NCBI GenBank assembly: GCA_001595785.1
Contig: LSSJ01000035.1
Location: forward strand, 4,558 to 68,557
Source: Euryarchaeota archaeon SM23-78
Lineage (GTDB): Archaea; Nanobdellota; Nanobdellia; Woesearchaeales; SM23-78
Length of the DNA stretch: 64,000 bases
Direction of reading: 5' to 3'
Shown here piece by piece: positions 793 through 62,650 of this stretch. Position 1 is the first letter of the stretch; every line of letters starts with the position of its first letter. A model generated the notes under the pieces. It was not told where the DNA came from. It did no database searches and worked only from the letters and a program-made list of their open reading frames with translations. The translations under genes and the position numbers were made by a program.

Positions 793-903
793 TTTCCTTT
801 CCCTCGTGAGCTTTGCGAGCGAGCAAATAAAAATTTTTAAAATTTAAATTAAAAATTCAAATCAAAATTAAATAATTCATTGGTCCTCAATCGCCGGACG
901 GGC

Positions 904-2185: not shown

Positions 2186-4309
2186 TCAAAACAAAATCAT
2201 GTATCCTAATGAACGAAGCTTTTGCATTGCATTAGCTTCTTCTTTATCCTGGGCTCTTCCACTTCTCTCAGCGATTTTGCTCTTCTTCACCTCTTTTATT
2301 ATCTTATCAACATTATCTGCCTTACTTTTTACAGGACTGGTACAAGGCATGCATCCAAGACTCCTATATCTTTTACCTTTTTTTGCAAAGTAAAGAGGAT
2401 TAACAGGCAGGTTCTCTCTTTTAATATAATCCCAGATATCTATTTCTGTCCAGTGAAGTAAGGGGTGAACCCTTAGGTGCTGCTCTCCTTCTTTCTGGGT
2501 TTTGAACTGGTCCCAGAGTTCAGGTGGCTGGTCCTTGTAGTCCCATTTAAAATCCCTGTCCCTAGGAGAAAAAACCCTTTCCTTGGCTCTTATGCCATGC
2601 TCATCTCTTCTTATACCTAGGAGTAAGGCTTCGAACTTGTGCTCTGCAATAGTTTTTTTTAGTGCATCTGTTTTTCTTACAGTGCAGCACTCAAGCTTGG
2701 CCTTTGGACCTATACCTTTTTGCTCTGCTTCCTCATAATTCTTTGAAACAATCAAGTTAAGCCCCCACTTCTTAACACACATATCTCTAAACTCATACAT
2801 CTCCTTAAAGTGCAGGCCTGTGTCAATGTATATAACTGGAAAAGGCACTTTGCCATAAAAGGCTTTTTTTGCCAGCCACAACAGAGTGGTTGAATTATGA
2901 CATATTATATCATTTGCAATGAAATTATGTGTGTTTTCTACTTCTAAGTCATATACTTTTCTCATCTTCTTTGGAAGAATCTTAATGTGTTTAACTTTTC
3001 TTGCACTAATTTGATAATTGCTTTTTCCAGCCCAGTTAATTTTAACTTTTCTTAATTTATTAGCTAAATCAGGTACGCCCTTCAGAAAATTTTTTATGCT
3101 TTGCTTTGAAGAGACTATGATTTGATACATTTTCTTACTTTTTGTTCTAAAACCAGAGCCTCTAGCATTAGATACAGAAAATCCATGACTTATTCCTAAT
3201 CTTAGAAGTAATGGCCTTATACTTTCAAGCAAGTTTTTATTAATACTTGAAAAACTAATAGCAAATTTATTATCCTTTCTCCAGCAAGAACCATCGCCTG
3301 CGAAGTACCCTCCTAAAAATAAAGCAAGTTGTTTGTTTGATAAGGTATAAATCCAGCTTGGTATTTTCTTATTTTTACTGAGTCCTTTGAAACCAAGCTT
3401 TTTCAGTTTTGTAACAAGTTTTTTAGAGCAAATCCATACGTCTCCATTCTCTTTTACTAGTACATTAAGATTTTCTTTTCGATTTAGTAGTTCTTCCATT
3501 CTTTTTTTGCTATCATATGCAGACCAGAATGAAACCCCGTGTTTTTTACTTATCTTTTTGGCTAAGTCTAATTTAAGGTTTTTTCTTTTGAAATTTGGGT
3601 GTTCTCTAAGTTCTTTTGCTATTTTTTCTACTATTGGTTTTTCTCGTGGAATTTTTTTCAAGAAACTTAGAATGCCTTTATTCTTTCCCGTAGAAATTAT
3701 GATTTTTCTATCTAATGCATAGCATCCATCTGCTAACCATAGCCCTCCAAGAACTAAAATCCAGTCAGCTACTCCTATGTCATCCACCTTTTTTAAATTC
3801 TTGACATCAAAATTTAAGGTGTTTGCACAGAATATTGAATCTTTTCTAGTTAACCCATAAACTTCAACAGGTTTGAGTGTTAAACCATTCTTATCAGTAT
3901 AGCTTCCTATCAGACTATGATCTCTTGTAACTTTAATGTGTTTATTTGTTTGAAGCTTTATTTCATAAACATCTTTACTAGTGAAGTGTGATATAAGAGT
4001 TGTAACTTTATTGAATTGTATTTTGGCTTTTCTTTGATTTTTTCCATTTACACTAAGAACCTCTACCTTTTCTTTTGGGGTTATGAATTCCTTGTTCCCT
4101 TTTTTAAACACTTCTTTTGGCGTAACTTCTTTATATAGATCTTCAATACAACCCCATTTTAATTTACTGTTTATTTTGTAATAAATCTTACTATCTCCAA
4201 GCACACTATCCTTACCAATACTCCAAAGCATGCCTATCTTTCTGAACTTCTTATAAGCCTCTCTAATAATGTATATGCTCTGGCTCTCTAATTGGTCAAG
4301 ATGATCCAT
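2186..4309 (-). CDS. cysD: sulfate adenylyltransferase subunit 2 precursor, interrupted by an intein
   Basis: The N-extein MDHLDQLESQSIYIIREAYKKF..WSIGKD and the C-extein STTLLWLAKKAFYGKVPFPVIYIDTGLHFKEMYEFRD..RSLGY are colinear with CysD as I recall the E. coli sequence. Rejoined, they restore the PP-loop SIGKDS. Confidence 0.9.
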   Translation of the reverse strand: MDHLDQLESQSIYIIREAYKKFRKIGMLWSIGKDSVLGDSKIYYKINSKLKWGCIEDLYKEVTPKEVFKKGNKEFITPKEKVEVLSVNGKNQRKAKIQFNKVTTLISHFTSKDVYEIKLQTNKHIKVTRDHSLIGSYTDKNGLTLKPVEVYGLTRKDSIFCANTLNFDVKNLKKVDDIGVADWILVLGGLWLADGCYALDRKIIISTGKNKGILSFLKKIPREKPIVEKIAKELREHPNFKRKNLKLDLAKKISKKHGVSFWSAYDSKKRMEELLNRKENLNVLVKENGDVWICSKKLVTKLKKLGFKGLSKNKKIPSWIYTLSNKQLALFLGGYFAGDGSCWRKDNKFAISFSSINKNLLESIRPLLLRLGISHGFSVSNARGSGFRTKSKKMYQIIVSSKQSIKNFLKGVPDLANKLRKVKINWAGKSNYQISARKVKHIKILPKKMRKVYDLEVENTHNFIANDIICHNSTTLLWLAKKAFYGKVPFPVIYIDTGLHFKEMYEFRDMCVKKWGLNLIVSKNYEEAEQKGIGPKAKLECCTVRKTDALKKTIAEHKFEALLLGIRRDEHGIRAKERVFSPRDRDFKWDYKDQPPELWDQFKTQKEGEQHLRVHPLLHWTEIDIWDYIKRENLPVNPLYFAKKGKRYRSLGCMPCTSPVKSKADNVDKIIKEVKKSKIAERSGRAQDKEEANAMQKLRSLGYMILF
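2894..4207 (-). mobile_element. intein (438 aa) with LAGLIDADG homing-endonuclease domain, inserted in the CysD PP-loop
   Basis: Starts SVLGDSKIYY (block A) and has VTRDHSL (block B TxxH). There are two LAGLIDADG motifs, LGGLWLADGCY and LGGYFAGDGSC. It ends VENTHNFIANDIICHN followed by +1 Ser. I verified by reverse-complementing 2881-2920 that HN|S falls at 2894/2893. Confidence 0.85.
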
Positions 4310-28237: not shown

Positions 28238-28906
28238 TTACTTATGAAGTTTGTGGTCTTCAATTACTCTGACTACCCTATCACATCTCTTAACATCTCC
28301 TGCTTGGTTAATTCCATGAGGGTGGTATACACTGGCGCTTGGTTCATAAATAATCTTATATCCTTGTTCTAACACTTTTTTTGCCCAGAGCCTATCCTCA
28401 ACACCAGAGATTTTTTCGTCAAAAGGTATTTTTTTCCATACACTTCTTCTGATTTTTGCATTTGCATTATGAAAAAAAGGATCAGTTGTTTGTTCTTTCC
28501 TCTCCAATCCAAAGGTGTTCCATAAATCCCTTTTGTCCCTGGGATCACTATGAGCCATGGGTTCTTGTCTGCCATACACGCCTGCAACCTTTGGATCCTC
28601 AAAATTGGTGAGCAGTCTGAACAACCAATTGGTGTTTTTGGGTATGCAATGAGCAGAAAGAAAGGCTAAGTATTCTCCTTTAGAGGCTTGGATTCCTTGG
28701 TTCAGGGCTCTGCCATAACTGAATTCTTTATTAGATATTTTTATTATTTTACAATTAAATTCTTTGGCTATCTCAAGGGTTTTATCTGTTGATTCATTAT
28801 CAACCAGAATAATCTCAAAATCAACAAAGTCCTGTTTAGATACTGCATAAAGGCATTGCCTAATCCATTCTTCCTCATTTTTAGACCTTATAATAACTGA
28901 TATCAT
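28238..28906 (-). CDS. family-2 glycosyltransferase
   Basis: MISVIIRSKNEEEWI..EIILVDNESTDKT. I moved the start to 28906. The 11 upstream codons of the listed ORF are the repeated leader read in another frame. Confidence 0.75.
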   Translation of the reverse strand: MISVIIRSKNEEEWIRQCLYAVSKQDFVDFEIILVDNESTDKTLEIAKEFNCKIIKISNKEFSYGRALNQGIQASKGEYLAFLSAHCIPKNTNWLFRLLTNFEDPKVAGVYGRQEPMAHSDPRDKRDLWNTFGLERKEQTTDPFFHNANAKIRRSVWKKIPFDEKISGVEDRLWAKKVLEQGYKIIYEPSASVYHPHGINQAGDVKRCDRVVRVIEDHKLHK

Positions 28907-28965
28907 AATTTCACCTCCAGAGAAATTATGGTATTGCAAAAATTTTCAATTTTAGCAATTATCAT
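28903..28965 (-). CDS. 20-aa mini-ORF MIIAKIENFCNTIISLEVKL (leader cassette copy 2)
   Basis: Its ATG overlaps the NeuB2 stop (ATGA) and its TGA overlaps the GT2 ATG (ATGA). It shares a 58-nt perfectly identical core with 51874..51931, running into the first bases of the downstream gene. Confidence 0.5.
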   Translation of the reverse strand: MIIAKIENFCNTIISLEVKL

Positions 28966-30068
28966 AATTTCACCATTCCAAAGGTGATGTGGGTGTCAGC
29001 CTCAATATCCTGCATTGCTGGTTTCCCTATTAGTTCAGGAATCATTTTTGGGGGAAGCCCTCTGTTAGGTCCCTTTGTTGTGAGCATTTCTCGTGTTATC
29101 TTTTCCCCTTTTTTTATCTCTTTTGCTGCAACTATGGTTCTTCTTTTTTCATCAAAGATTTTTAGTTCGCCTGGAAGCACCTCTCTTTCTTGCTTTGACC
29201 ATTGAAGGCCTTTTTCTACTTTTCTTATGTTTCTTACTAATTTCTTTAATCCGTGTGGTTCAAGACTCATTGCATGGTCAAGGCCTGGGAGCGCTCTATT
29301 AATAGTATAATGCTTCTCTATCACTCTTGCTCCTAGGGCAACAGCCACAGGACCAAAGGTTATACCGTTCTCATGGTCACTGAATCCAACAGGCTTACCA
29401 AACTTTTTTAACCACTGAATCCATTGCAGGTTTGCATCCTCTGCTCTCATAGGATAACTTGAAACACAATGCAGAAGCACAACATCATATCCTTCCAGAA
29501 CCTCAAGAGCGTCTTTTACTTCTTGTTCAGTTGCCATTCCTACTGACATGATTATAGTTTTATTTGTCTTTGCTAATTCTTCTAATACAGGGATATCTGT
29601 TAATGTAAAGGCTGCTACTTTATACGCATCCACCCCTAGTTTTTCAAGAAATCTTACACTAGGAATGTCAAAAGGGGTTACTATAAAATCAATTTTTCCT
29701 TTGCAGTACTCTTTTAATTTTTTAAATTCTTCCCAGCTCAGTTCTATGTGTTCTCTTACCTTTCTATAAGTATCTCCCCACTCAGGAACATTGGTAAACA
29801 CCCTATCAAGCCTGTCTTTGGTAAGCATAGAATCAATATCTCTTTTCTGAAATTTAACAGCATCACAGCCAGCCTCAATGGCTACATCTATGAGCTTATA
29901 ACCCTTTTCTAATTCTCCGTTATGATTATTGCCTGCTTCGCCTATCACATAGGTGTGGCTTTCAGGTATTTCTTTAAACCCATTAACAATACTAACCCTT
30001 GTTTTCCTTGATTTTCTTGGACGACTCCTAGCCATAATACCCCTCTTAATTCTTATTAATCCTACCAA
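28962..30068 (-). CDS. neuB: nonulosonic acid synthase, NeuB family (copy 2)
   Basis: HTYVIGEAGNNHNGELEKGYKLIDVAIEAGCDAVKFQ..FSDHENG, plus a C-terminal SAF domain. The start may be Met12 (30035). Confidence 0.8.
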   Translation of the reverse strand: MVGLIRIKRGIMARSRPRKSRKTRVSIVNGFKEIPESHTYVIGEAGNNHNGELEKGYKLIDVAIEAGCDAVKFQKRDIDSMLTKDRLDRVFTNVPEWGDTYRKVREHIELSWEEFKKLKEYCKGKIDFIVTPFDIPSVRFLEKLGVDAYKVAAFTLTDIPVLEELAKTNKTIIMSVGMATEQEVKDALEVLEGYDVVLLHCVSSYPMRAEDANLQWIQWLKKFGKPVGFSDHENGITFGPVAVALGARVIEKHYTINRALPGLDHAMSLEPHGLKKLVRNIRKVEKGLQWSKQEREVLPGELKIFDEKRRTIVAAKEIKKGEKITREMLTTKGPNRGLPPKMIPELIGKPAMQDIEADTHITFGMVKL

Positions 30069-30179
30069 TTAAAGAGTGGATTTTTGTTTTATATATTTTA
30101 TGATATTCAATTAAACTTCGACTAAACTTATCTTCGACTAAACCTAACTTCAACCAAACTTATCTAAATAGCGTATTCT

Positions 30180-38788: not shown

Positions 38789-38967
38789 TTTTCGCCCGCT
38801 CGCTACGTTCGCTCCCCAAAGCCAGCAAAAGCAAAGCTTTTGCGGTGCCAGAAATTGCATTTCTGAGCACTTGCAAAAGGCAAGCGGTTACAAAAAGCCA
38901 AAGGCTTTTTGAATGTTCAAATCAAAATTTGAATATTCCTAGCACAAAAACGTGCCGGAACCCCTTA
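38789..38967 (+). repeat. left arm of an approximately 180-bp inverted repeat (multi-hairpin intergenic module)
   Basis: Near-identical blocks are shared with the reverse complement of 47450..47632: 35 nt at 38876..38910, 33 nt at 38935..38967, and a 25-nt GC box at 38789..38813. Confidence 0.8.
38892..38910 (+). terminator. hairpin plus T5 run (aaaaagcc-aaa-ggcttttt), candidate aglB terminator
   Basis: 8-bp stem followed by oligo-T, 107 nt downstream of the aglB stop. Archaeal termination at oligo-T is established; its use here is inferred. Confidence 0.35.
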
Positions 38968-38974
38968 GAAAAAA

Positions 38975-41998: not shown

Positions 41999-43416
41999 TA
42001 AATTCTAATCTCATCAACAACAAAAACAATTTTTTCTTTCTCATTGATATCTTCCTTAAAGAACTTGCCAGCTTCTTTTCTTAGAGCCTTTGCAACTGCA
42101 GGATTTTTTTTAACAATATTCTTTACTTCCTTTGGATCTTTTTTCAAGTCATACAGCTCTTCAACCTCTCCATGTACATAACCGCAGCGCTTGCACTTCC
42201 TAAAACCTTTTTGAGGAAAGATATATTTATATCTTTCAGAACGAATGCACCTCTTCTTTTGTAAATAATTTTCTTCTGCAAATACGTACTTTCTTTTTTC
42301 TTTTCCCTGCATTAGCTTTACAAGGCTCTTACCATTATCTTTGTCAAATCTTTTTCTTATTCCAAGAATATCAATAACAGTAGGAGTTATGTCAAGGTTC
42401 ATTGCGAGATTTTTCACAACTTTTCCTTTACCAAGTTTTGGATATCTTATGATTAAAGGTATCTTTAGGTTTTGTTCATACAATCCGTGGTGGTCAAATA
42501 ATATGTTATGTTCCACAAGGCTCTCGCCGTGATCTGCTGTTATAAATATGATTGTATTGTCAAGTATTTTTTTTTGTCTTAAAGAAGTGGTTATTCTTCC
42601 TATCATCTCATCGCAATAGTTTATACTTGCATGATACCTGGCTATTACTTGACGTGCATCATTTTGATACCCTGTGAGAGCCTCATAAAAGCTGCGCACC
42701 TCTTTGTCTTTGAGCTGATTTATTAGGTGCTTCATAGGAATAAAGGGTTGGTTCTTTTCAAAGAATTTTTTTTGAAGAGCAGAAGAACAGTTGTAAGGTG
42801 CGTGCGTGTCCCAGAAATGAATGAACATAAAGAAAGGATGGTTTTTGTTATTCTTAATTATTGACTCTGCTTTTTTTGCAAGCTCAAGACCGTCTGAATA
42901 AGGTTTGAATTTATTGGTTAGCCAGTTTAGTTTTTCAGAAAAATAAAGTCTTACCATTAGTTTATGCAGAGGCTTTATCTTAGACAGCATTTTTTCAAGA
43001 TTTTGAAAAAACATTTTTTTCTCTTTTATTTCTGTTATTTTAAGGTAATAATCATAACCTGTTTTATGCCATCTGCCCAACCAGTCAAGGCCAAAGGTAT
43101 GGTAGCTTTGCTCTTTTAGGATGGATTGCAACATTTGGTTTTTTCTTGCAAAAAAAGTGCTGATTTCAGTCTTTGTAACTTTCTCTGCTTGGTTATGAAT
43201 TCCATGCCTAGTCGGGTGCTTGCCGGTCATGATAGAAGTAATAGAGGCGTCAGTGGTATTAATTGAGGTAAAAGCATTCTCAAATCTTATGCCTTCCCTT
43301 GCCAGTTTGTCAATATTAGGAGTGGTTTTTAAGTGAAAACCATAGCAGCTAACACTCTGGGCGCGCATAGCATCAACTAGGAAGATGATAATATTGGGTT
43401 TGTTAGTTTGTTTCAT
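41998..43416 (-). CDS. sulfatase-fold (AlkP superfamily) enzyme lacking the C/S-x-P-x-R formylglycine motif
   Basis: PNIIIFLVDAMR..TTPNIDKLAREGIRFENAF..TTDASITSIMTGKHPTRHG..FITADHGE. Thr occupies the position of the FGly Cys/Ser. Confidence 0.65.
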   Translation of the reverse strand: MKQTNKPNIIIFLVDAMRAQSVSCYGFHLKTTPNIDKLAREGIRFENAFTSINTTDASITSIMTGKHPTRHGIHNQAEKVTKTEISTFFARKNQMLQSILKEQSYHTFGLDWLGRWHKTGYDYYLKITEIKEKKMFFQNLEKMLSKIKPLHKLMVRLYFSEKLNWLTNKFKPYSDGLELAKKAESIIKNNKNHPFFMFIHFWDTHAPYNCSSALQKKFFEKNQPFIPMKHLINQLKDKEVRSFYEALTGYQNDARQVIARYHASINYCDEMIGRITTSLRQKKILDNTIIFITADHGESLVEHNILFDHHGLYEQNLKIPLIIRYPKLGKGKVVKNLAMNLDITPTVIDILGIRKRFDKDNGKSLVKLMQGKEKRKYVFAEENYLQKKRCIRSERYKYIFPQKGFRKCKRCGYVHGEVEELYDLKKDPKEVKNIVKKNPAVAKALRKEAGKFFKEDINEKEKIVFVVDEIRI

Positions 43417-44396
43417 TTTTTTATGAACATCGCATCCTTCACAAACACTTCAGGTCCCACCTTATTCACCAGGAAGATGATAACTGCAAGTATATATCTT
43501 ATAATTAACATCACTCCAAATATTGTTCCTGAAGCAATAGTTGATATACCTACTGCTTTGAACAGATAAACACCAGAGGTTTCTCTTATTCCAAGGCCAC
43601 TCACACTTACTGGTATTAATGATACAAGGGTGCTTAGTGATATTATTCCGATGACGTGACCCAGGGAGACCCTCACTCCCAGAGCATCAAACAAGATTTT
43701 TACTCCAATGAATAGTATTAACCAGCGTATCGCAGTGACTCCAAAGTTAAGAGCAACTTGTTTTTTTCTTTTAAAAAAGAAGGTCTTAATGTCTTTGTCA
43801 AATAAGTCTACTGTCTTATGACTCTTTCTAAAAATCCTTTTGGTAATAATGTTTCTTACCTTAGTGTTAAGAGCGAGTAAGAGGAGAAGAGTTCCAATGA
43901 TTGCAATTATTAGTGCCAAGGTCAAGGCTTGCTGAAAAGGCAGGTAGAAGAACATTGCAAACCCTCCTATTATGAAGATTAGTGCAAAGGTAATTATTTT
44001 ATCAGCAATGCTAATAGCAGAGGTTTTTCCTAGGTTCATGTGCTTTTCCTTGTTAAGAAAAAAGATGATTGAGAACTCGCCCAGGTTGCCAGGGGTGAAC
44101 TGCCCTACTGCCCAGCTCATAAGATAGTACTGCACTATCTTTTTGAATTTTACTTTTTTGCCTAGGCTGTCAATGATTATCTTTAAGCACACACTTTCAA
44201 GAGCAGTGTAGATAAAGAACAGGATTGCAAATATTATTATCGGAAGGATTCCTATTGTGCTTATAGAACCAAAGGTTGCTTTAAATCCAAGCTTGAGATA
44301 AAGGATTATAAAAATGGCTATTCCAATAATTATCCTTCCAATCCTAAGCCATAACCTGGTTTTTTGTTTAGACATTTGCCTGTTTAACCCATTCAA
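43413..44396 (-). CDS. UPF0104/LPG-synthase-TM (flippase-like) membrane protein
   Basis: 327 aa with 8 TM helices and an N-terminal RLWLRIGRIIIGIAIFIILY, typical of this family. The likely start is Met8 (44375). Confidence 0.5.
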   Translation of the reverse strand: MNGLNRQMSKQKTRLWLRIGRIIIGIAIFIILYLKLGFKATFGSISTIGILPIIIFAILFFIYTALESVCLKIIIDSLGKKVKFKKIVQYYLMSWAVGQFTPGNLGEFSIIFFLNKEKHMNLGKTSAISIADKIITFALIFIIGGFAMFFYLPFQQALTLALIIAIIGTLLLLLALNTKVRNIITKRIFRKSHKTVDLFDKDIKTFFFKRKKQVALNFGVTAIRWLILFIGVKILFDALGVRVSLGHVIGIISLSTLVSLIPVSVSGLGIRETSGVYLFKAVGISTIASGTIFGVMLIIRYILAVIIFLVNKVGPEVFVKDAMFIKK

Positions 44397-47440: not shown

Positions 47441-47449
47441 GTCCCCTTA

Positions 47450-47632
47450 TAAGGGGTTCCGGCACGTTTTTGTGCTAGGAATGTTCAAATTTTAATTTGA
47501 AAATTAAAAAAGCCTTTGGCTTTTTGTAACCGCTTGCCTTTAGTCAAGTCTCAAAAATGCTTTGCATTTTTGGACTCCCAAAAGCACAGCTTTTGATGAG
47601 TTTTAAAAGCGAACGAAGTGAGCGGGCGAAAA
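47450..47632 (-). repeat. right arm of the approximately 180-bp inverted repeat
   Basis: It is the reverse complement of 38789..38967. Identical blocks lie at 47507..47541 and 47450..47482, and the GC box lies at 47608..47632. Confidence 0.8.
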
Positions 47633-48979: not shown

Positions 48980-49142
48980 GCCTGTGCCTCGTTTGAGCAC
49001 CTATGAAAGTTTAAGTTTAAAATATAAGGGAAATAAAGAAAATAAAAATAATAACTGTGCTCGCTCACTTTGCTCGCGAGGGAACAAGCAAATCTGAGAT
49101 TTGCTGTCCCAAAAAAATAGAATATTTTTTGTGAAAACAAGA

Positions 49143-50356: not shown

Positions 50357-50386
50357 GTTGGTAAATCATTTACCCCGCTCATAAAC

Positions 50387-50533
50387 GCGGGGGTGCCGGA
50401 GTGGTCAATGCTTATGGCGACTAGACGGGCATGGTTGAGGGCCATGTGACTTAGTGTCTGCGCGGGTTCAAACGAGAAACTGCGTTTATTGCCCAGAAAA
50501 ACGTTAGTTTTTCTGAATGCCCCGTCCCCCGCA
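50387..50533 (+). tRNA. tRNA-Leu (anticodon GAG) with two non-canonical introns (D-loop about 50409..50424; T-loop 59/60 about 50473..50519)
   Basis: Acceptor GCGGGGG pairs with CCCCCGC, followed by discriminator A. The anticodon arm is CATGG-TTGAGGG-CCATG (50430-50446). There is a 15-nt variable arm, T-stem GCGGG/CCCGT and T-loop TTCAAA|C. Intron 2 is flanked by a 3-nt bulge, a 4-bp helix and a 3-nt bulge. The spliced length is 84 nt. Confidence 0.7.
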
Positions 50534-50557
50534 TCATACTCATAAAAAATTAAGAAA

Positions 50558-51344: not shown

Positions 51345-51446
51345 TATGGTTAAAACAAAATTTAAAAAATTTTGAATTGGTGTAAAAATTTATTTTTATG
51401 CAACACAAAAACAAAAGTTTTTGTTGATTCATTTAAAAAATAAAAA

Positions 51447-51857
51447 ATGAATAAAATGGAGCAAAAAGTTATTAATGCGCATGGTAAGAGGAAAAGAGCA
51501 GTTGCAAGAGCTACTCTAAGTCCTGGCACTGGCATTGTTAGGATTAATGATGTAGAGTTGGATAGTTATAAGCCAAGGATTTACAGGTTAAGAATTAGAG
51601 AGCCTTTATTGTTATCAGGAGAAATAGCTAATCATGTGGATATAAAAGTGAATGTTGTTGGTGGAGGCCTTTCGAGCCAGACAGATGCTGCAAGACTAGC
51701 AATTGCAAAGGTATTAGCAGATTACAGTCCCAGGTTAAAGAAGGTCTTCCTTGATTATGACAGGCAGCTTCTTGTTGCTGATGTTCGACGTAAGGAAATG
51801 GCAAAGCCGAATAGGCATGGGCAGGCTCGGAGTCGTAGACAAAAAAGCTATAGATGA
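51447..51857 (+). CDS. rps9: 30S ribosomal protein uS9
   Basis: GKRKRAVARATL..VNVVGGGLSSQTDAARLAIAKVL..RQKSYR C-terminus. Confidence 0.9.
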   Translation: MNKMEQKVINAHGKRKRAVARATLSPGTGIVRINDVELDSYKPRIYRLRIREPLLLSGEIANHVDIKVNVVGGGLSSQTDAARLAIAKVLADYSPRLKKVFLDYDRQLLVADVRRKEMAKPNRHGQARSRRQKSYR

Positions 51858-51866
51858 GGAGGTGGA

Positions 51867-51932
51867 ATGATGATTATTGCTAAAATTGAAAATTTTTGCA
51901 ATACCATAATTTCTCTGGAGGTGAAATTATGA
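51867..51932 (+). CDS. 21-aa mini-ORF MMIIAKIENFCNTIISLEVKL (leader cassette copy 1)
   Basis: Preceded by GGAGGTG. Its TGA overlaps the rpoN ATG (ATGA). The peptide is identical to the one at 28903..28965. Confidence 0.5.
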   Translation: MMIIAKIENFCNTIISLEVKL

Positions 51933-52126
51933 TTATACCAATCAGATGTTTTTCATGCAACAAACCAGTAGCTCATTTATGGGAGGAGTATGTTGAAAGA
52001 GTAAAGAAAGGCGAGGATAAAAAAGAGGTTCTTGACAAGCTAGGATTAGAGAGGTATTGTTGCAGAGCACTATTTTTAGGACATGTTGATTTGCTGGATA
52101 TGGCTACTCAGTTTAAGAAGTTCTAG
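51929..52126 (+). CDS. rpoN: DNA-directed RNA polymerase subunit N (Rpo10)
   Basis: MIIPIRCFSCNKPVAHLWEEY..LERYCCRALFLGHVDL. I moved the start to 51929. Confidence 0.9.
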   Translation: MIIPIRCFSCNKPVAHLWEEYVERVKKGEDKKEVLDKLGLERYCCRALFLGHVDLLDMATQFKKF

Positions 52127-55879: not shown

Positions 55880-58800
55880 ATGGCCAAAGAACCTAAACCA
55901 GGAACTAAACTGCCTAATTTCAAGGCTATTGCTGAGAAATGGCAGAAGAAATGGGCAGATAAGAAGATATTTAGGGTAGTTGAGAATCCGAACAAAAAGA
56001 AATACTACGTATTAGAGATGTATCCTTATCCTTCTTCATATGGCTTGCACATGGGTCATGCTAGGAACTATACTATTGGTGATGTATTTGCTCGTTTTAA
56101 GAGGATGAATGGCTTTAACGTGCTTTACCCTATGGGCTATGATTCTTTTGGTCTTCCTGCTGAGAATGCTGCTATTAAGGCTAAATCTCATCCTAAGATT
56201 TTCACTGAAAAAGCCATTGAAAACTTTGTTAAGCAGCAGAAAGCCCTTGGTTTAAGCTATGACTGGGATAGAATGATTTACTCTCATGACCCTGGTTTCT
56301 ATAAGTGGGATCAATGGGTTTTTCTTAAGATGTTTGAAAAAGGCCTTGCTTTTAAGAGAAAGGCTGCTGTTAATTGGTGCCCTAAGTGTAAAACAGTTTT
56401 GGCTAATGAGCAGGTCCATGGAAGTATGTGCTGGGCTCATACAGACACCCCTGTTGAAATAAAGGATTTGAATCAATGGTTCTTTAAGATTACTGATTAT
56501 GCAGAAGAGCTTCTTAAGGATATTGACAAACTTAAGAACTGGCAAGAGGATGTTAAGCTTATGCAAAAGAACTGGATTGGTAAAAGTCATGGTACCCTAA
56601 TAGAGTTTCAGATTGAAGGTTCTGATAAAAAGTTCAGTGTTTTTACCACAAGACCAGACACTCTATGGGGAATTACTTTCTTAGTGTATGCTCCTGAACA
56701 TCCTGATGTTATGGAGTTAGTTAAAGGAACAGAGTATAGGGGTAAGGTTAAGAAGTTTGTTCAAAAAGTATTGCTACAGGACAGGTTTGAAAGAACTGCT
56801 GAGAACAAAGAAAAAGAGGGCGTGTTCATAGGTAGATTTGCTATTCATCCTGTTACAAAGGAAAAAATACCCATATATATTGCTAATTTTGTGCTTTATG
56901 AGTATGGCACTGGTGCAATCATTGCTGTGCCTGCTCATGACCAGCGTGATTTTGAGTTTGCAAAGAAGTACAAGATTCCAATAAAAGTAGTTATTAATCC
57001 TGCTATGTTTGACCTTAGTCCTGATAAGATGACCAGGGCTTACATGGGAGACGGTAACATGATTAATTCTGAGCAGTTCAATGGCATGAACAACAGAGAC
57101 GCAATACCAGATATTAACAAGTTTTTAGAAAAGAACAAATGGGGTAAGGTAACTGTTCAGTACAAACTAAGGGATTGGTTGATAAGCAGGCAGAGGTTCT
57201 GGGGCTGCCCAATACCAGTTATATATTGTGATAAATGCGGTAAAGAAGATGTTCTTATGTTGCATGGCTGGGAAGACACATCTAAAGCTGGTTTTATCCC
57301 TGAGTTTGTTAAAGATTTGAAAACTAAAGGTTACAAGGCTTATGCTTATGACCAGCCTAACACAGACGCACCAAAGTTTAATGAATGGTTTAGTTTTGCA
57401 GAAAATAAGATTAAAGGCCTTAACAATAATAATATGAGTATTGTTGGCCACAGCATGGGTGGCTTGCTTGCTTTAAAACTTGCTGAGAAATATAAGGTTA
57501 AGAAATTAGTGCTTGTTGCTCCTGTTGGAACAAGGCCTTCAAAAAAATATTATGATGTTACTTGCAAAGAGCTCGGACAGGATGAACTAAATGTTTTCAA
57601 GAACTATATGGACAGAGACATTGATGTTGAAAAGATAAAAAAGAATGCTAAGAAAATAATTTTTATTTTTGGGAAAAAAGACCCTTGGATTAATGAGGAG
57701 ATAAGAAATTCTTATATCTCTAGGTTCAAAGATGTTGCTGATATTCATCTATTGGATTATGGTCACATGGCTGAGAGTGAAAATTTTAAGAAACTTACAG
57801 AATTAGAAAACCTGTTTTCAAAAGAAGGTATTAAAACAATTCCTGTGCCTGAAAAAGACTTGCCTGTAAAACTGCCTGAAGATGTCAAGTTTGATGCTTC
57901 TGGTGGTAATCCCCTTGCAAAGATTGAAGCATTTGTTAATACCAAGTGTCCTAGGTGCGGCGGAGAAGCTAGGAGAGAAACAGATACCATGGATACCTTT
58001 GTTGACTCTGCTTGGTACTTTTTAAGGTACTGTGATCCAAAGAATAACAAAGTGATTTTTGATAAAAAGAAAGTAAAGTACTGGATGCCCATAGATACTT
58101 ATATTGGTGGTAAAGAGCATGCAACTATGCACCTTATTTATTTTAGATTTTATTGCAAGTTCTTAAGAGACCTTGGCTTGTTAGAGTTTGATGAACCCAC
58201 CCTTCACTTGTTTAATCAGGGTATGCTATGCAAAGGCGGTGTTAAGATGAGCAAGAGCAAGGGCAATGTGGTGACCCAAGAAGAAATTGAGAATAATTAT
58301 GGTATTGACACTGCACGCTTTTTCCTTGTTTTTGTTGCTAGTCCTGATAAGGATATGGAGTGGGATGACCAGGCAGTTGAGGGCTCTTATAGATTCCTTG
58401 TGAAGGTTTATGACATGCTTACTAATAAGAAGATTGTTAATAAGGTTATTAAGAATCAGGAGAGCAAGACCCATAAAACCATTCTTGAGGTTACTGATTA
58501 TATATCTTCTTTCAAGTACAATCTTGCTCTTATTAGTATTATGAAGTTTGCGAATTATCTTTACACTAAAGACGAGATAAGTAACAGTGCTGCAAACAAC
58601 TTGTTATTATTACTCTCACCTTTTGCTCCTCACCTTGCAGAGGAATTATGGGAAAAATTGGGTAATAGAGGTTTTATTAGTCTTGAAAAATGGCCTGTTG
58701 GTGATAAGCAGAAGATTGATGAGAAGGTAGAGGCAGCTGAAGAGTTATATATAAAGGTAAGAAAAGATATTCTTGCATTACAAGAGTTAACTGGCTTGAC

Positions 58801-59158
58801 CAAGCCTAGTAAAGTAGTGCTTATTATTGCTAATACTTGGAAATACGAGTTTATTACTAATCTGAAGAAGGAGATAGAGAAAACAAGGGATGTTGGTAAA
58901 TTAATAAAAGTACTTAGTGCAAAAGATAAAACCCATAGTAAATTAATTGCAAATTTTGTTCCAAAATTTGTGAAGAACCCTGATAAGATACCAGAGGTTG
59001 TAATATCTCAGCAGGATGAAAAGAAAGCTCTTGGTGATTTTGTTGTTGAGCTAGAAAAAGAGTTTAAGACCAAGTTTGAAATAACGCTTGAGAAGGATTC
59101 AAAGCATGATAAAGCCAAGAATGCCTTGCCTGGTAAACCAGCTATTGTTTTTACATAA
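55880..59158 (+). CDS. leuS: leucyl-tRNA synthetase (bacterial-like architecture) carrying an internal alpha/beta-hydrolase domain
   Basis: HMGH (res 57-60), CP1 TTRPDT (256-261), NWIGKS, RETDTMDTFVDSAWYFLRY and VKMSKSKGN. Confidence 0.9.
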   Translation: MAKEPKPGTKLPNFKAIAEKWQKKWADKKIFRVVENPNKKKYYVLEMYPYPSSYGLHMGHARNYTIGDVFARFKRMNGFNVLYPMGYDSFGLPAENAAIKAKSHPKIFTEKAIENFVKQQKALGLSYDWDRMIYSHDPGFYKWDQWVFLKMFEKGLAFKRKAAVNWCPKCKTVLANEQVHGSMCWAHTDTPVEIKDLNQWFFKITDYAEELLKDIDKLKNWQEDVKLMQKNWIGKSHGTLIEFQIEGSDKKFSVFTTRPDTLWGITFLVYAPEHPDVMELVKGTEYRGKVKKFVQKVLLQDRFERTAENKEKEGVFIGRFAIHPVTKEKIPIYIANFVLYEYGTGAIIAVPAHDQRDFEFAKKYKIPIKVVINPAMFDLSPDKMTRAYMGDGNMINSEQFNGMNNRDAIPDINKFLEKNKWGKVTVQYKLRDWLISRQRFWGCPIPVIYCDKCGKEDVLMLHGWEDTSKAGFIPEFVKDLKTKGYKAYAYDQPNTDAPKFNEWFSFAENKIKGLNNNNMSIVGHSMGGLLALKLAEKYKVKKLVLVAPVGTRPSKKYYDVTCKELGQDELNVFKNYMDRDIDVEKIKKNAKKIIFIFGKKDPWINEEIRNSYISRFKDVADIHLLDYGHMAESENFKKLTELENLFSKEGIKTIPVPEKDLPVKLPEDVKFDASGGNPLAKIEAFVNTKCPRCGGEARRETDTMDTFVDSAWYFLRYCDPKNNKVIFDKKKVKYWMPIDTYIGGKEHATMHLIYFRFYCKFLRDLGLLEFDEPTLHLFNQGMLCKGGVKMSKSKGNVVTQEEIENNYGIDTARFFLVFVASPDKDMEWDDQAVEGSYRFLVKVYDMLTNKKIVNKVIKNQESKTHKTILEVTDYISSFKYNLALISIMKFANYLYTKDEISNSAANNLLLLLSPFAPHLAEELWEKLGNRGFISLEKWPVGDKQKIDEKVEAAEELYIKVRKDILALQELTGLTKPSKVVLIIANTWKYEFITNLKKEIEKTRDVGKLIKVLSAKDKTHSKLIANFVPKFVKNPDKIPEVVISQQDEKKALGDFVVELEKEFKTKFEITLEKDSKHDKAKNALPGKPAIVFT
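57242..57838 (+). other. inserted serine-hydrolase (alpha/beta fold, YdeN/RBBP9-like) domain within LeuRS
   Basis: LMLHGW; GHSMGG (Ser525); GKKDPW (Asp601); YGHM (His629). The insertion lies between CDKCG and TIPVPEKDLPVKLPEDV. Confidence 0.7.
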
Positions 59159-62341: not shown

Positions 62342-62365
62342 TCACATAAATAAGAATTTTATTAA

Positions 62366-62628
62366 ATGCGCGCCTGGAGGTGGATAAGCTGAATAAGCAT
62401 TAGCTTACCCCATTCTTTCCTCCGCTCCGCAACCCTCAAAGCACCCTTGCCTAAGCTTAGGGCTGCTCTGTTCCCAGCCTGACCCGGTTCACAAAGATAA
62501 GAGCCAATGAGGACAAAGCATCGACGGTCCGAACAGGACTAATACTTAAGGAGCAAACCGCCCCCCAGGCTTCGGCCCCCACAATATCCATTTTGGGTAA
62601 CAGGCGAGGATAAGCCGCCCGGCCTAGC
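62366..62628 (-). ncRNA. signal recognition particle RNA (7S/SRP RNA); ends approximate
   Basis: The minus strand reads GGGUCAGGCUGGGAACAGAGCAGCCC, which is the helix-8 signature (AGG loop, GGAA tetraloop, AGCA loop). It is a GC-rich island of about 260 nt with a T-run at the 3' end. Confidence 0.75.
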
Positions 62629-62650
62629 AGAGGAGAGGAAGAATTGGTTA

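Follow-up and report, generated by a model that had tools for sequence, protein, structure and literature searches.

How did the same short, hairpin-forming DNA segment come to lie at two unrelated gene junctions of one archaeal genome, and how do two compact operons accommodate it? The question arises from a stretch of 64,000 nucleotides of Euryarchaeota archaeon SM23-78 (assembly GCA_001595785.1, contig LSSJ01000035.1, positions 4,558 to 68,557 of the forward strand; hereafter the window). On its minus strand the segment lies between the genes for a NeuB-family sialic/nonulosonic acid synthase and a family-2 glycosyltransferase (GT2), the junction called locus 2 here; on the plus strand it lies between the genes for ribosomal protein S9 (rps9) and RNA polymerase subunit N (rpoN), at locus 1, which carries copy 1. 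Judged by sequence comparison, both sites are lineage-specific insertions relative to the nearest orthologous loci. The explanation that we favour, with evenly balanced confidence, is that a low-copy junction insert of 59 nt was copied between two Shine–Dalgarno (SD)–ATG sites sharing about 14 nt and is tolerated through the signals that it regenerates. Its copy-and-paste insertion was probably recent and harmless, and a conserved regulator is the less probable reading.

The minus strand of the NeuB/GT2 junction reads ..GGAATGGTGAAATTATGATAATTGCTAAAATTGAAAATTTTTGCAATACCATAATTTCTCTGGAGGTGAAATTATGATATCAG.. and has the architecture J1–X–J2, in which J1 and J2 are the left and right copies of the junction, X is a 44-nt core, P is a hairpin and J′ is an inverted copy of the junction. 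The features of this locus, all on the minus strand, are as follows.

28962–30035, minus: NeuB-family sialic/nonulosonic acid synthase (Pfam NeuB, 1.2e-76, plus SAF).
28960–28974, minus: left junction J1, GGTGAAATTATGATA, native sequence that includes the NeuB stop and the former GT2 start.
28916–28959, minus: inserted core X, 44 nt, ATTGCTAAAATTGAAAATTTTTGCAATACCATAATTTCTCTGGA, identical to 51876–51919.
28933–28959, minus: hairpin P within X, ATTGCtAAAATT-GAA-AATTTTtGCAAT.
28922–28930, minus: J′, CATAATTTC, an exact inverted copy of GAAATTATG in the junction.
28901–28915, minus: right junction J2, GGTGAAATTATGATA, joined to the GGA before it to form the SD GGAGGTGA, followed by a spacer and the GT2 start in use.
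28903–28965, minus: mini open reading frame (mini-ORF) of 20 codons, MIIAKIENFCNTIISLEVKL and a stop, the only open frame through the insert.
28238–28906, minus: GT2, downstream of the insert (Pfam Glycos_transf_2, 1.5e-29).

Each junction copy consists of the SD core GGTGA, a spacer and ATGAT, followed by A or T. P opens X with a 12-bp stem that has one mismatch and a run of five Ts in its 3′ arm; X terminates in ..TCTGGA, and its fusion to J2 completes the SD. The 15-mer GGTGAAATTATGATA is a perfect direct repeat, spaced 59 nt, around the core, as an earlier note on this DNA had reported. That note had also placed the second start 60 nt after the first; the correct length of the insertion is 59 nt, of which 44 are unique and 15 are duplicated. 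Its ATGA–ATGA coupling chain is present in both steps: the NeuB stop TGA (28962–28964) overlaps the mini-ORF ATG, which is the former GT2 start codon in J1, and the mini-ORF TGA overlaps the GT2 ATG (28904–28906). The NeuB gene ends in GGA ATG GTG AAA TTA TGA, its last codons and stop forming the left junction copy. The encoded C terminus, ..HITFGMVKL, whose ending MVKL the note had read correctly, is intact and matches the ..HITFGMVKI of an orthologue on contig L091, and the GT2 N terminus MISVIIRSKNEEEW is kept on L091 and on a second relative's contig, L089.

The other locus has the same architecture.

51447–51857, plus: rps9, upstream of copy 1 (Pfam Ribosomal_S9, 6e-32).
51861–51875, plus: left junction copy, GGTGGAATGATGATT, matching the right copy at 13 of 15 positions.
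51876–51919, plus: inserted core X, copy 1, 44 nt, with P at 51876–51902 and J′ at 51905–51913.
51920–51934, plus: right junction copy, GGTGAAATTATGATT, with the SD and the working rpoN start.
51867–51932, plus: mini-ORF, MMIIAKIENFCNTIISLEVKL and a stop, preceded by the SD GGAGGTG, its stop overlapping the rpoN ATG.
51929–52126, plus: rpoN, the archaeal RNA polymerase subunit N (Rpb10 homologue; Pfam RNA_pol_N, 8e-29).

The earlier note was right to place a copy beside rpoN, with the name understood as RNA polymerase subunit N and not as sigma-54. Aligning the two loci gave a 73-nt block present at 28902–28974 (minus) and 51861–51933 (plus), with 70 of 73 positions identical and an exact stretch of 58 nt; all three differences fall within the left 15 nt and none in the next 58. 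The cores, 23 kb apart, are identical at 44 of 44 positions. The flanks of the rps9/rpoN copy are ggaggtgGaatGatgatt and ggaggtgAaatTatgatt, and the two mismatches counted between them in the note were borne out; the same core is enclosed by a 15/15 repeat at NeuB/GT2 and by a 13/15 repeat at rps9/rpoN. Matches to the 15-mer with at most two mismatches occur in the window only at 28901, 28960 and 51920, the rpoN left copy having three, and the window holds two copies of the insert and no third. No second 49-nt match appeared in dinucleotide shuffles of the window, and direct repeats that are perfect over 13 nt or more, at a spacing of 25–120 nt, numbered 8 in 103 kb, against 0.7 expected from Markov simulations (about tenfold). 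An assembly artefact was ruled out: JGI, ENA and Logan assemblies, made independently, have eight contigs with identical inserts, and one of these contigs also shows a single-nucleotide polymorphism close by. From the identity of the two cores it follows that the copying was recent, with one core as the template of the other or a third copy as the source of both.

The orthologous junctions lack the insert. The three closest GT2 orthologues in a collection of 5.8 billion proteins are 73%, 72% and 69% identical, and the contigs of two of them (L089, 73%; L091, 69%) reach back into NeuB. Their junctions read ..agcaaggtgaagatTTGAtatcagta.. in L089 and ..tttggaatggtgaaaatATGAtttctgtg.. in L091 (longer stretch, ..cacattacatttggaatggtgaaaatATGAtttctgtg..); in both, the NeuB stop and the GT2 start overlap directly by 4 nt (ATGA or TTGA), and L091 holds the junction GGTGAAAATATGATT in single copy. 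These sites support the proposal of the earlier note that the segment entered an ancestral direct overlap of the NeuB stop and GT2 start. At rps9/rpoN, the spacing from the rps9 stop to the rpoN ATG is 12 nt in four contigs (L009, L094, L095 and L098), where the sequence is TAA-AAAGGTGATAAT-ATGATAATCCCA, AAAGGTGATAAT being the 12-nt spacer; their rps9 DNA is 80–81% identical to that of the window, and they are syntenic with it, with the same amidohydrolase downstream. The rps9–rpoN junctions of L012 and L014 are likewise compact and empty. The comparison that the note had proposed, a search for empty sites at both orthologous junctions, therefore found them in the nearest relatives at both loci, and neither the insert, the mini-ORF nor a conserved peptide was present at the orthologous NeuB–GT2 and rps9–rpoN junctions examined. 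The genomes closest to the window carry the labels Woesearchaeota or Nanoarchaeota. The databases hold no relatives in the range of 73–100% (GT2) or 83–100% (S9) identity, so the time of insertion is not narrowed further.

A mechanism of copying is suggested by what the two loci share. Both targets have the form SD–spacer–ATGAT, with about 14 nt in common; the core and the right junction are identical across the loci and the left junctions are locus-specific, as in a templated insertion, and the base after ATGAT agrees with the local gene on both sides of each insert. This junction pattern is compatible with homology-templated copying and is no proof of it. In such an event, a break at an SD–ATG junction would be repaired with the similar junction of a donor used for priming, synthesis would proceed through X and the donor's right junction, and the strand would then re-anneal, leaving the recipient with its own left junction and a donor-type right junction. 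Templated copying would also account for the 14-mer that the two occupied sites share. The imperfect repeat at rpoN, beside an identical core, favours recombination or templated copying over a clean target-site duplication. We rank homology-templated copying, to which we give about even credence, above a staggered-cut integrase that leaves a 15-bp duplication, which we regard as a tentative second possibility.

That second possibility amounts to a tiny non-autonomous mobile element: 44 nt of hairpin DNA that enters at staggered cuts of about 15 bp, duplicates its target and prefers GGTGAAATTATGAT-like SD–start sites. The enzyme could be a casposase/Cas1-like protein or another transposase or integrase acting in trans. 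The perfect 15-nt duplication at NeuB/GT2 surrounds a core identical to the other copy, and the boundaries relative to the core agree between the loci if 15 nt is also taken for rpoN, both as such an element would leave them. Casposases, moreover, have been described as using a '15-bp yardstick'; they integrate short duplexes in vitro and target tRNA genes or gene 3′ ends (PMC5137440, PMC4779613). The core itself argues the other way, since it has no terminal inverted repeats and was found in two copies only, and the Pfam scan of 38 window proteins found no Cas1, transposase or integrase. The two mismatches in the rpoN duplication, against none in the 44-nt core, would also need two later substitutions or gene conversion.

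Inserts of a similar kind at gene boundaries of related contigs bear on the same question.

L009 (1420–1497), L094 and L095 (both 2911–2988), tRNA 5′ end: insert of 48 nt, repeat ATGCGGGGGTGCCGG, 15/15.
L099 (about 2585–2660), tRNA 5′ end: diverged copy of the L009-type insert, repeat 11/15.
L010 and L096, rps9 3′ end: insert of 32 nt with repeat 18/21 (L010) and of 36 nt with repeat 15/18 (L096).
L010 and L096, rpoN 3′ end: insert of 32 nt at 47-nt spacing in both, repeat 15/15 (L010, TTTAAGAAATTCTAG) and 12/15 (L096).
L010 (2886–2959 and 3156–3217) and L096 (4385–4460 and 4660–4725): coordinates of the inserts in these two contigs.
L013, rps9–rpoN: insert of about 60 nt with two hairpins, repeat of about 8–11 nt.

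Mobility is suggested by the perfect 15-nt repeats around two of these hairpin inserts, ATGCGGGGGTGCCGG and TTTAAGAAATTCTAG, and by the tRNA-site insert, which is present or absent among genomes with 98% identical rps9 DNA: L009 has it, and L098, at that identity to L009, lacks it, as does the window. A 29-nt hairpin core is identical in L099 and L009. The repeats in relatives also measure 18–21 nt and about 8–11 nt, which speaks against a fixed 15-bp cut. L010 and L096 carry both of their inserts despite only 73% identity of their rps9 DNA, so that such inserts can be old; the perfect repeat in L010 belongs to one of them and is not the mark of a fresh duplication. The general rule that a perfect repeat means a recent insertion was ruled out by this case. 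All differences between the repeat copies in L010 and L096 lie at third codon positions. As an observation in its own right, the stop codon of the first copy in L010 and L096 lies in the hairpin and is followed by a T-run, a terminator-like arrangement.

The element in the window is the only such insert seen as two identical copies at unrelated loci. A broader claim would be that Woesearchaeota-like archaea harbour a new class of hairpin inserts of about 30–50 nt, placed by a staggered cut of about 15 bp at stop/start junctions, gene 3′ ends and tRNA 5′ ends by a Cas1/casposase-like yardstick acting on spacer-sized DNA, and persisting because the duplication regenerates stop, SD and start, with the window as the first case with two identical copies. 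Taken jointly, we consider this claim unlikely.

Returning to the copied junction insert, its persistence would follow from the duplication. The left copy keeps the last codons and stop of the upstream gene, and the right copy would supply the SD GGAGGTGA, spacer and ATG; because the duplicated junction retains these signals, the insert may be nearly neutral. The orphaned start codon, coupled to the NeuB stop at one locus and led by GGAGGTG at rpoN, would open the 20-codon mini-ORF, and the TGA of this frame overlaps the regenerated ATG. Two termination–reinitiation (ATGA) steps would then hand the ribosomes on, and on their way these would melt the predicted structure in which the downstream SD or AUG is otherwise hidden. 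Such a two-step relay would leave the insert nearly silent.

In these predictions, P alone has a free energy of −4.6 kcal/mol (RNAfold) and is part of the minimum-free-energy fold at both loci. J′ is able to pair with J1 or with J2. The predicted J′–J1 pairing encloses P (−13.7 kcal/mol at locus 2 and −10.7 at locus 1); the predicted J′–J2 pairing gives a 9-bp stem of −7.0 kcal/mol that takes in the AUG and leaves the SD in its loop. The helix at locus 2 is extended by pairing of UCUGGAGGUG with the NeuB codons CACCUUUGGA, which gives −27.4 kcal/mol and z = −4.85; at locus 1 the fold lacks this extension and has z = −1.43. Partition functions gave the following probabilities of being unpaired.

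Locus 2 (NeuB/GT2): downstream SD 0.01, downstream AUG 0.33.
Locus 1 (rps9/rpoN): downstream SD 0.55, downstream AUG 0.22.

The predicted burial differs, affecting the SD at one locus and the AUG at the other; the structure predicted for the downstream initiation regions at both loci is consistent with a dependence on upstream translation.

The same folds could instead be read as a selected cis-regulatory leader, in which the mini-ORF and the alternative J′ pairings act as an attenuator-like or coupling switch that controls how much GT2 is translated relative to NeuB, and RpoN relative to S9, and whose usefulness led to its recruitment on two occasions. We find this account doubtful. It gains from the mutually exclusive folds that J′ permits by pairing with either junction, with the downstream SD or AUG predicted to be buried, from the z score at locus 2, from the mini-ORF, the sole open frame, whose end coincides with the start codon, and from the independent hairpins between rps9 and rpoN in L010/L096 and in L013 (z = −3.9 and −4.9). 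It loses in that the nearest relatives lack the insert at the orthologous junctions, so that the operons do without it, and in that the predicted folds are unlike at the two loci, the one at locus 1 having z = −1.43. Identical copies give no measurable covariation, no Rfam family matches, and the open frame is statistically not compelling: 23–31% of randomisations of the insert composition kept an open frame and the right length class has a probability of 1/3, so that the relay would arise by chance with a probability of about 0.08–0.10. The earlier note had described the segment as a mini-ORF cassette; the frame is indeed open at both copies, and at this chance level the cassette idea is weakly supported. 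A positively selected regulatory role for the insert is possible but unsupported.

Could template switching during replication, or fold-back repair, have made the segment on the spot, either separately at the two loci or at one of them with chance convergence at the other? Successive fold-back or template-switch events would leave a junction, a palindrome, an inverted junction copy and a second junction in the order seen here, the right arm at locus 2 also pairs with the NeuB codons CACCTTTGGA, and both kinds of event are documented, template switching as a source of RNA hairpins and fold-back priming as a source of short inverted insertions (PMC8794818, PMC11724301). Independent origin of 58 identical nucleotides at two loci is impossible, however, and no template for the 27-nt palindrome at the centre was found near either locus or elsewhere in the window. 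We hold this origin to be very improbable for the pair; at most it accounts for the birth of the first copy.

Several points weigh against our preferred explanation, the copied junction insert. We infer the copying mechanism, and we assume that archaea can make templated insertions when homology spans only about 14 nt. A staggered-cut integrase would equally leave the perfect 15-nt repeat at NeuB/GT2, and the exact 15-nt repeats around the hairpin inserts at the L009 tRNA 5′ end and the L010 rpoN 3′ end also fit such an enzyme. The direction of transfer is ambiguous, as the outgroup signals are weak and conflicting. At both variable positions the right junction at rpoN agrees with the outgroup L009, a hint that the rpoN insert is the older one and that its left copy has diverged. 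Two other signs hint instead that the insert originated at the NeuB locus: the complementarity that extends into NeuB codons, and the similarity of ..CTTTGGAATGGTG.. to ..CTCTGGAGGTG.., which match at 21/22 positions with a gap of 2 nt. The census of the source genome covers 64 kb, which by itself does not prove a low copy number. Translation of the mini-ORF is putative, and its openness, weakly non-random at the chance level given above, is suggestive at best.

Wider searches returned no further copy. As a DNA pattern, the core had no match in the GTDB representatives (one genome per species) or in collections of viral contigs, phages and plasmids; metagenome contigs gave none with one pattern, a result of little weight because the source samples are evidently missing from that collection. 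Two chance matches there (L092 and L093), with unrelated flanks, came from a 21-mer of the palindrome. At the protein level the insert leaves a trace in gene annotation. The open reading frames 28238..28939 (minus) and 51896..52126 (plus) have the prefix MQYHNFSGGEIM in common, which the earlier note had rightly called a spurious N terminus and which is read from within the insert. Public calls of GT2 (233 aa, P0001) and RpoN (76 aa; L002, L003 and L101) begin at a TTG inside it, and the prefix on these calls is an annotation artefact made by the insert. Such calls arise when the start of the downstream gene is set at the TTG inside the element, as seen at both known loci. A search of the 5.8-billion-protein collection with an artificial alignment, in which random tails followed the 13-aa prefix, found eight proteins that share words with the MQYHNFSGGEIM(I) prefix and none at E ≤10, weakly suggesting that element-led genes number a handful at most.

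Comparison with known elements places the insert near several classes. The ends of X, ATTGCTAAAATT... and ...TTTCTCTGGA, are not inverted repeats, its palindrome being internal (core positions 1–27), which ruled out a classical miniature inverted-repeat transposable element (MITE). The insert resembles MITEs in being short, non-coding and hairpin-forming, with flanking direct duplications, more than one identical copy and empty sites in relatives; it differs in length (44 nt, against typically 80–500 nt), in its lack of terminal inverted repeats, in its two known copies with no parent insertion sequence or transposase seen, and in one imperfect flank duplication. Rickettsia palindromic elements (RPEs) measure 100–150 bp, occur in dozens of copies and lie in frame within bacterial ORFs. 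Like them, the insert is a small palindrome in or by coding sequence that would survive because it keeps the frame open and leaves expression undisturbed; unlike them, it is archaeal, sits at a stop/start junction and rebuilds an SD and an ATG. RPEs are listed in a review of MITEs (PMC10969869).

The 15-nt repeat agrees with the 14–15-bp target duplication of casposon/Cas1 integration, and casposon-like targets, tRNA genes or gene 3′ ends, are seen for the inserts in relatives. Casposons, however, are kilobases long, with terminal inverted repeats and genes for Cas1 and PolB; X has none of these and no coding capacity, and no Cas1 was found among the 38 window proteins scanned, so the resemblance, limited to duplication length, is an analogy only. 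Templated insertions and template-switch mutations are also short, with direct and inverted copies of their flanks and hairpins (PMC8794818, PMC11724301, PMC5453318), but they copy local sequence, unlike an identical 58-nt block at loci 23 kb apart. With ATGA translational coupling the insert shares a stop that overlaps the next start, a short ORF that ends on the start of the main gene, and structure around the downstream SD/AUG that an upstream ribosome could open; classical coupling and leader peptides are conserved features of operons, whereas the insert is recent and absent from the orthologous operons. It is a variant of known small palindromic inserts, yet no demonstrable member of any defined family.

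Candidates outside mobile DNA fared no better. A known RNA family or riboswitch was ruled out because the insert had no match in Rfam 15 at gathering thresholds, and a permissive search of 28700–29200 returned only noise (E ≥1.3); the sole Rfam match of the window is the archaeal signal recognition particle (SRP) RNA at 62362–62634. An archaeal promoter cassette was ruled out because the insert has no TATA box (TTTATAWA, about 26–32 nt upstream of the start site); promoters in the window have the canonical box, for example that of the SRP RNA, ccTTTATAAAtaacc. A bulge–helix–bulge (BHB) motif, defined by two 3-nt bulges separated by a 4-bp helix with excision restoring the exon junction or ancestral mRNA, was not found for a 59-nt excision, in a scan too strict to detect the introns of the tRNA at 50386–50541; candidates of 63–66 nt were artefacts of the long helix.

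The setting of the two loci is a window of about 35% G+C with genes densely packed and often led by GGAGGTGA-type SDs, SD-led tight packing being the norm here. Its gene order S13-S4-S11-RpoD-L18e-L13-S9-RpoN is of archaeal type. Upstream of rps9, the rpl13–rps9 spacer (51345–51446) is 102 nt long and AT-rich, with many small A-run/T-run hairpins (CAAAATTTaaaaAATTTTG, CAACACAAAAACaaaaGTTTTTGTTG), against relatives in which the two genes are 5–21 nt apart or overlap. Upstream of NeuB, the intergenic region 30114–30165 contains three tandem 16-nt units that are AACTTCGACTAAACTTATCT-like. Another duplicated gene junction lies on the minus strand at 43376–43391 and 43468–43483, where C-terminal codons of an LPG-synthase-like gene (..VIIFLV..DAM..) recur 92 nt downstream as N-terminal codons of an overlapping sulfatase gene (..IIIFLVDAM..).

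Other features of the window stand apart from the insert. Between rpoD and rpl18e, at 50386–50541 (plus), lies the tRNA-like gene mentioned above (GCGGGGGTGCCGGAGTGGTCAA ... GGGTTCAAA ... CCCCGTCCCCCGCA), missed by ARAGORN and Rfam, apparently with at least two non-canonical introns, one of them within the T-arm; the same tRNA is present in L009, L098, L010, L096 and L099 with differing sets of introns. A pair of inverted repeats of about 180 nt (38789–38970 and 47447–47632; 114 nt at 89% and 67 nt at 75%), each made of a string of small hairpins, encloses an 8.5-kb glycosylation block (GT2, sulfatase, LPG-synthase-like, epimerase, thioredoxin and methyltransferase genes) located between AglB/STT3 and the S13 operon; these repeats could mark an invertible or inserted segment. 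The G+C-rich motif GCTCGCTCnCnnnGCTCnCGAGGGAA occurs at 799–824 (minus) and 49059–49084 (plus), two copies against none expected, each directly upstream of a gene start (gene 61–792 and the rps11 region). A PAPS-reductase-like gene (2186–4309, minus) is split by an intein with a LAGLIDADG homing endonuclease domain, and the leucyl-tRNA synthetase gene (55880–59158, plus) has an alpha/beta-hydrolase domain inserted at residues 458–646.

If the ordinary reading of a copied, tolerated junction insert is true, the two loci are a clean natural case of a compact coupled operon absorbing an insertion, with one ATGA overlap turned into a two-step mini-ORF relay. They also carry a warning for annotation, because gene callers lengthen GT2 and RpoN with the spurious MQYHNFSGGEIM prefix. 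If instead an integrase made the 15-bp duplication, the insert would be a new minimal mobile element in DPANN archaea, which might link to casposase and spacer-integration chemistry and to the origin of CRISPR adaptation. Under either reading, the hairpin inserts at gene boundaries of relatives point to an undescribed mutational or mobile process in these small genomes.

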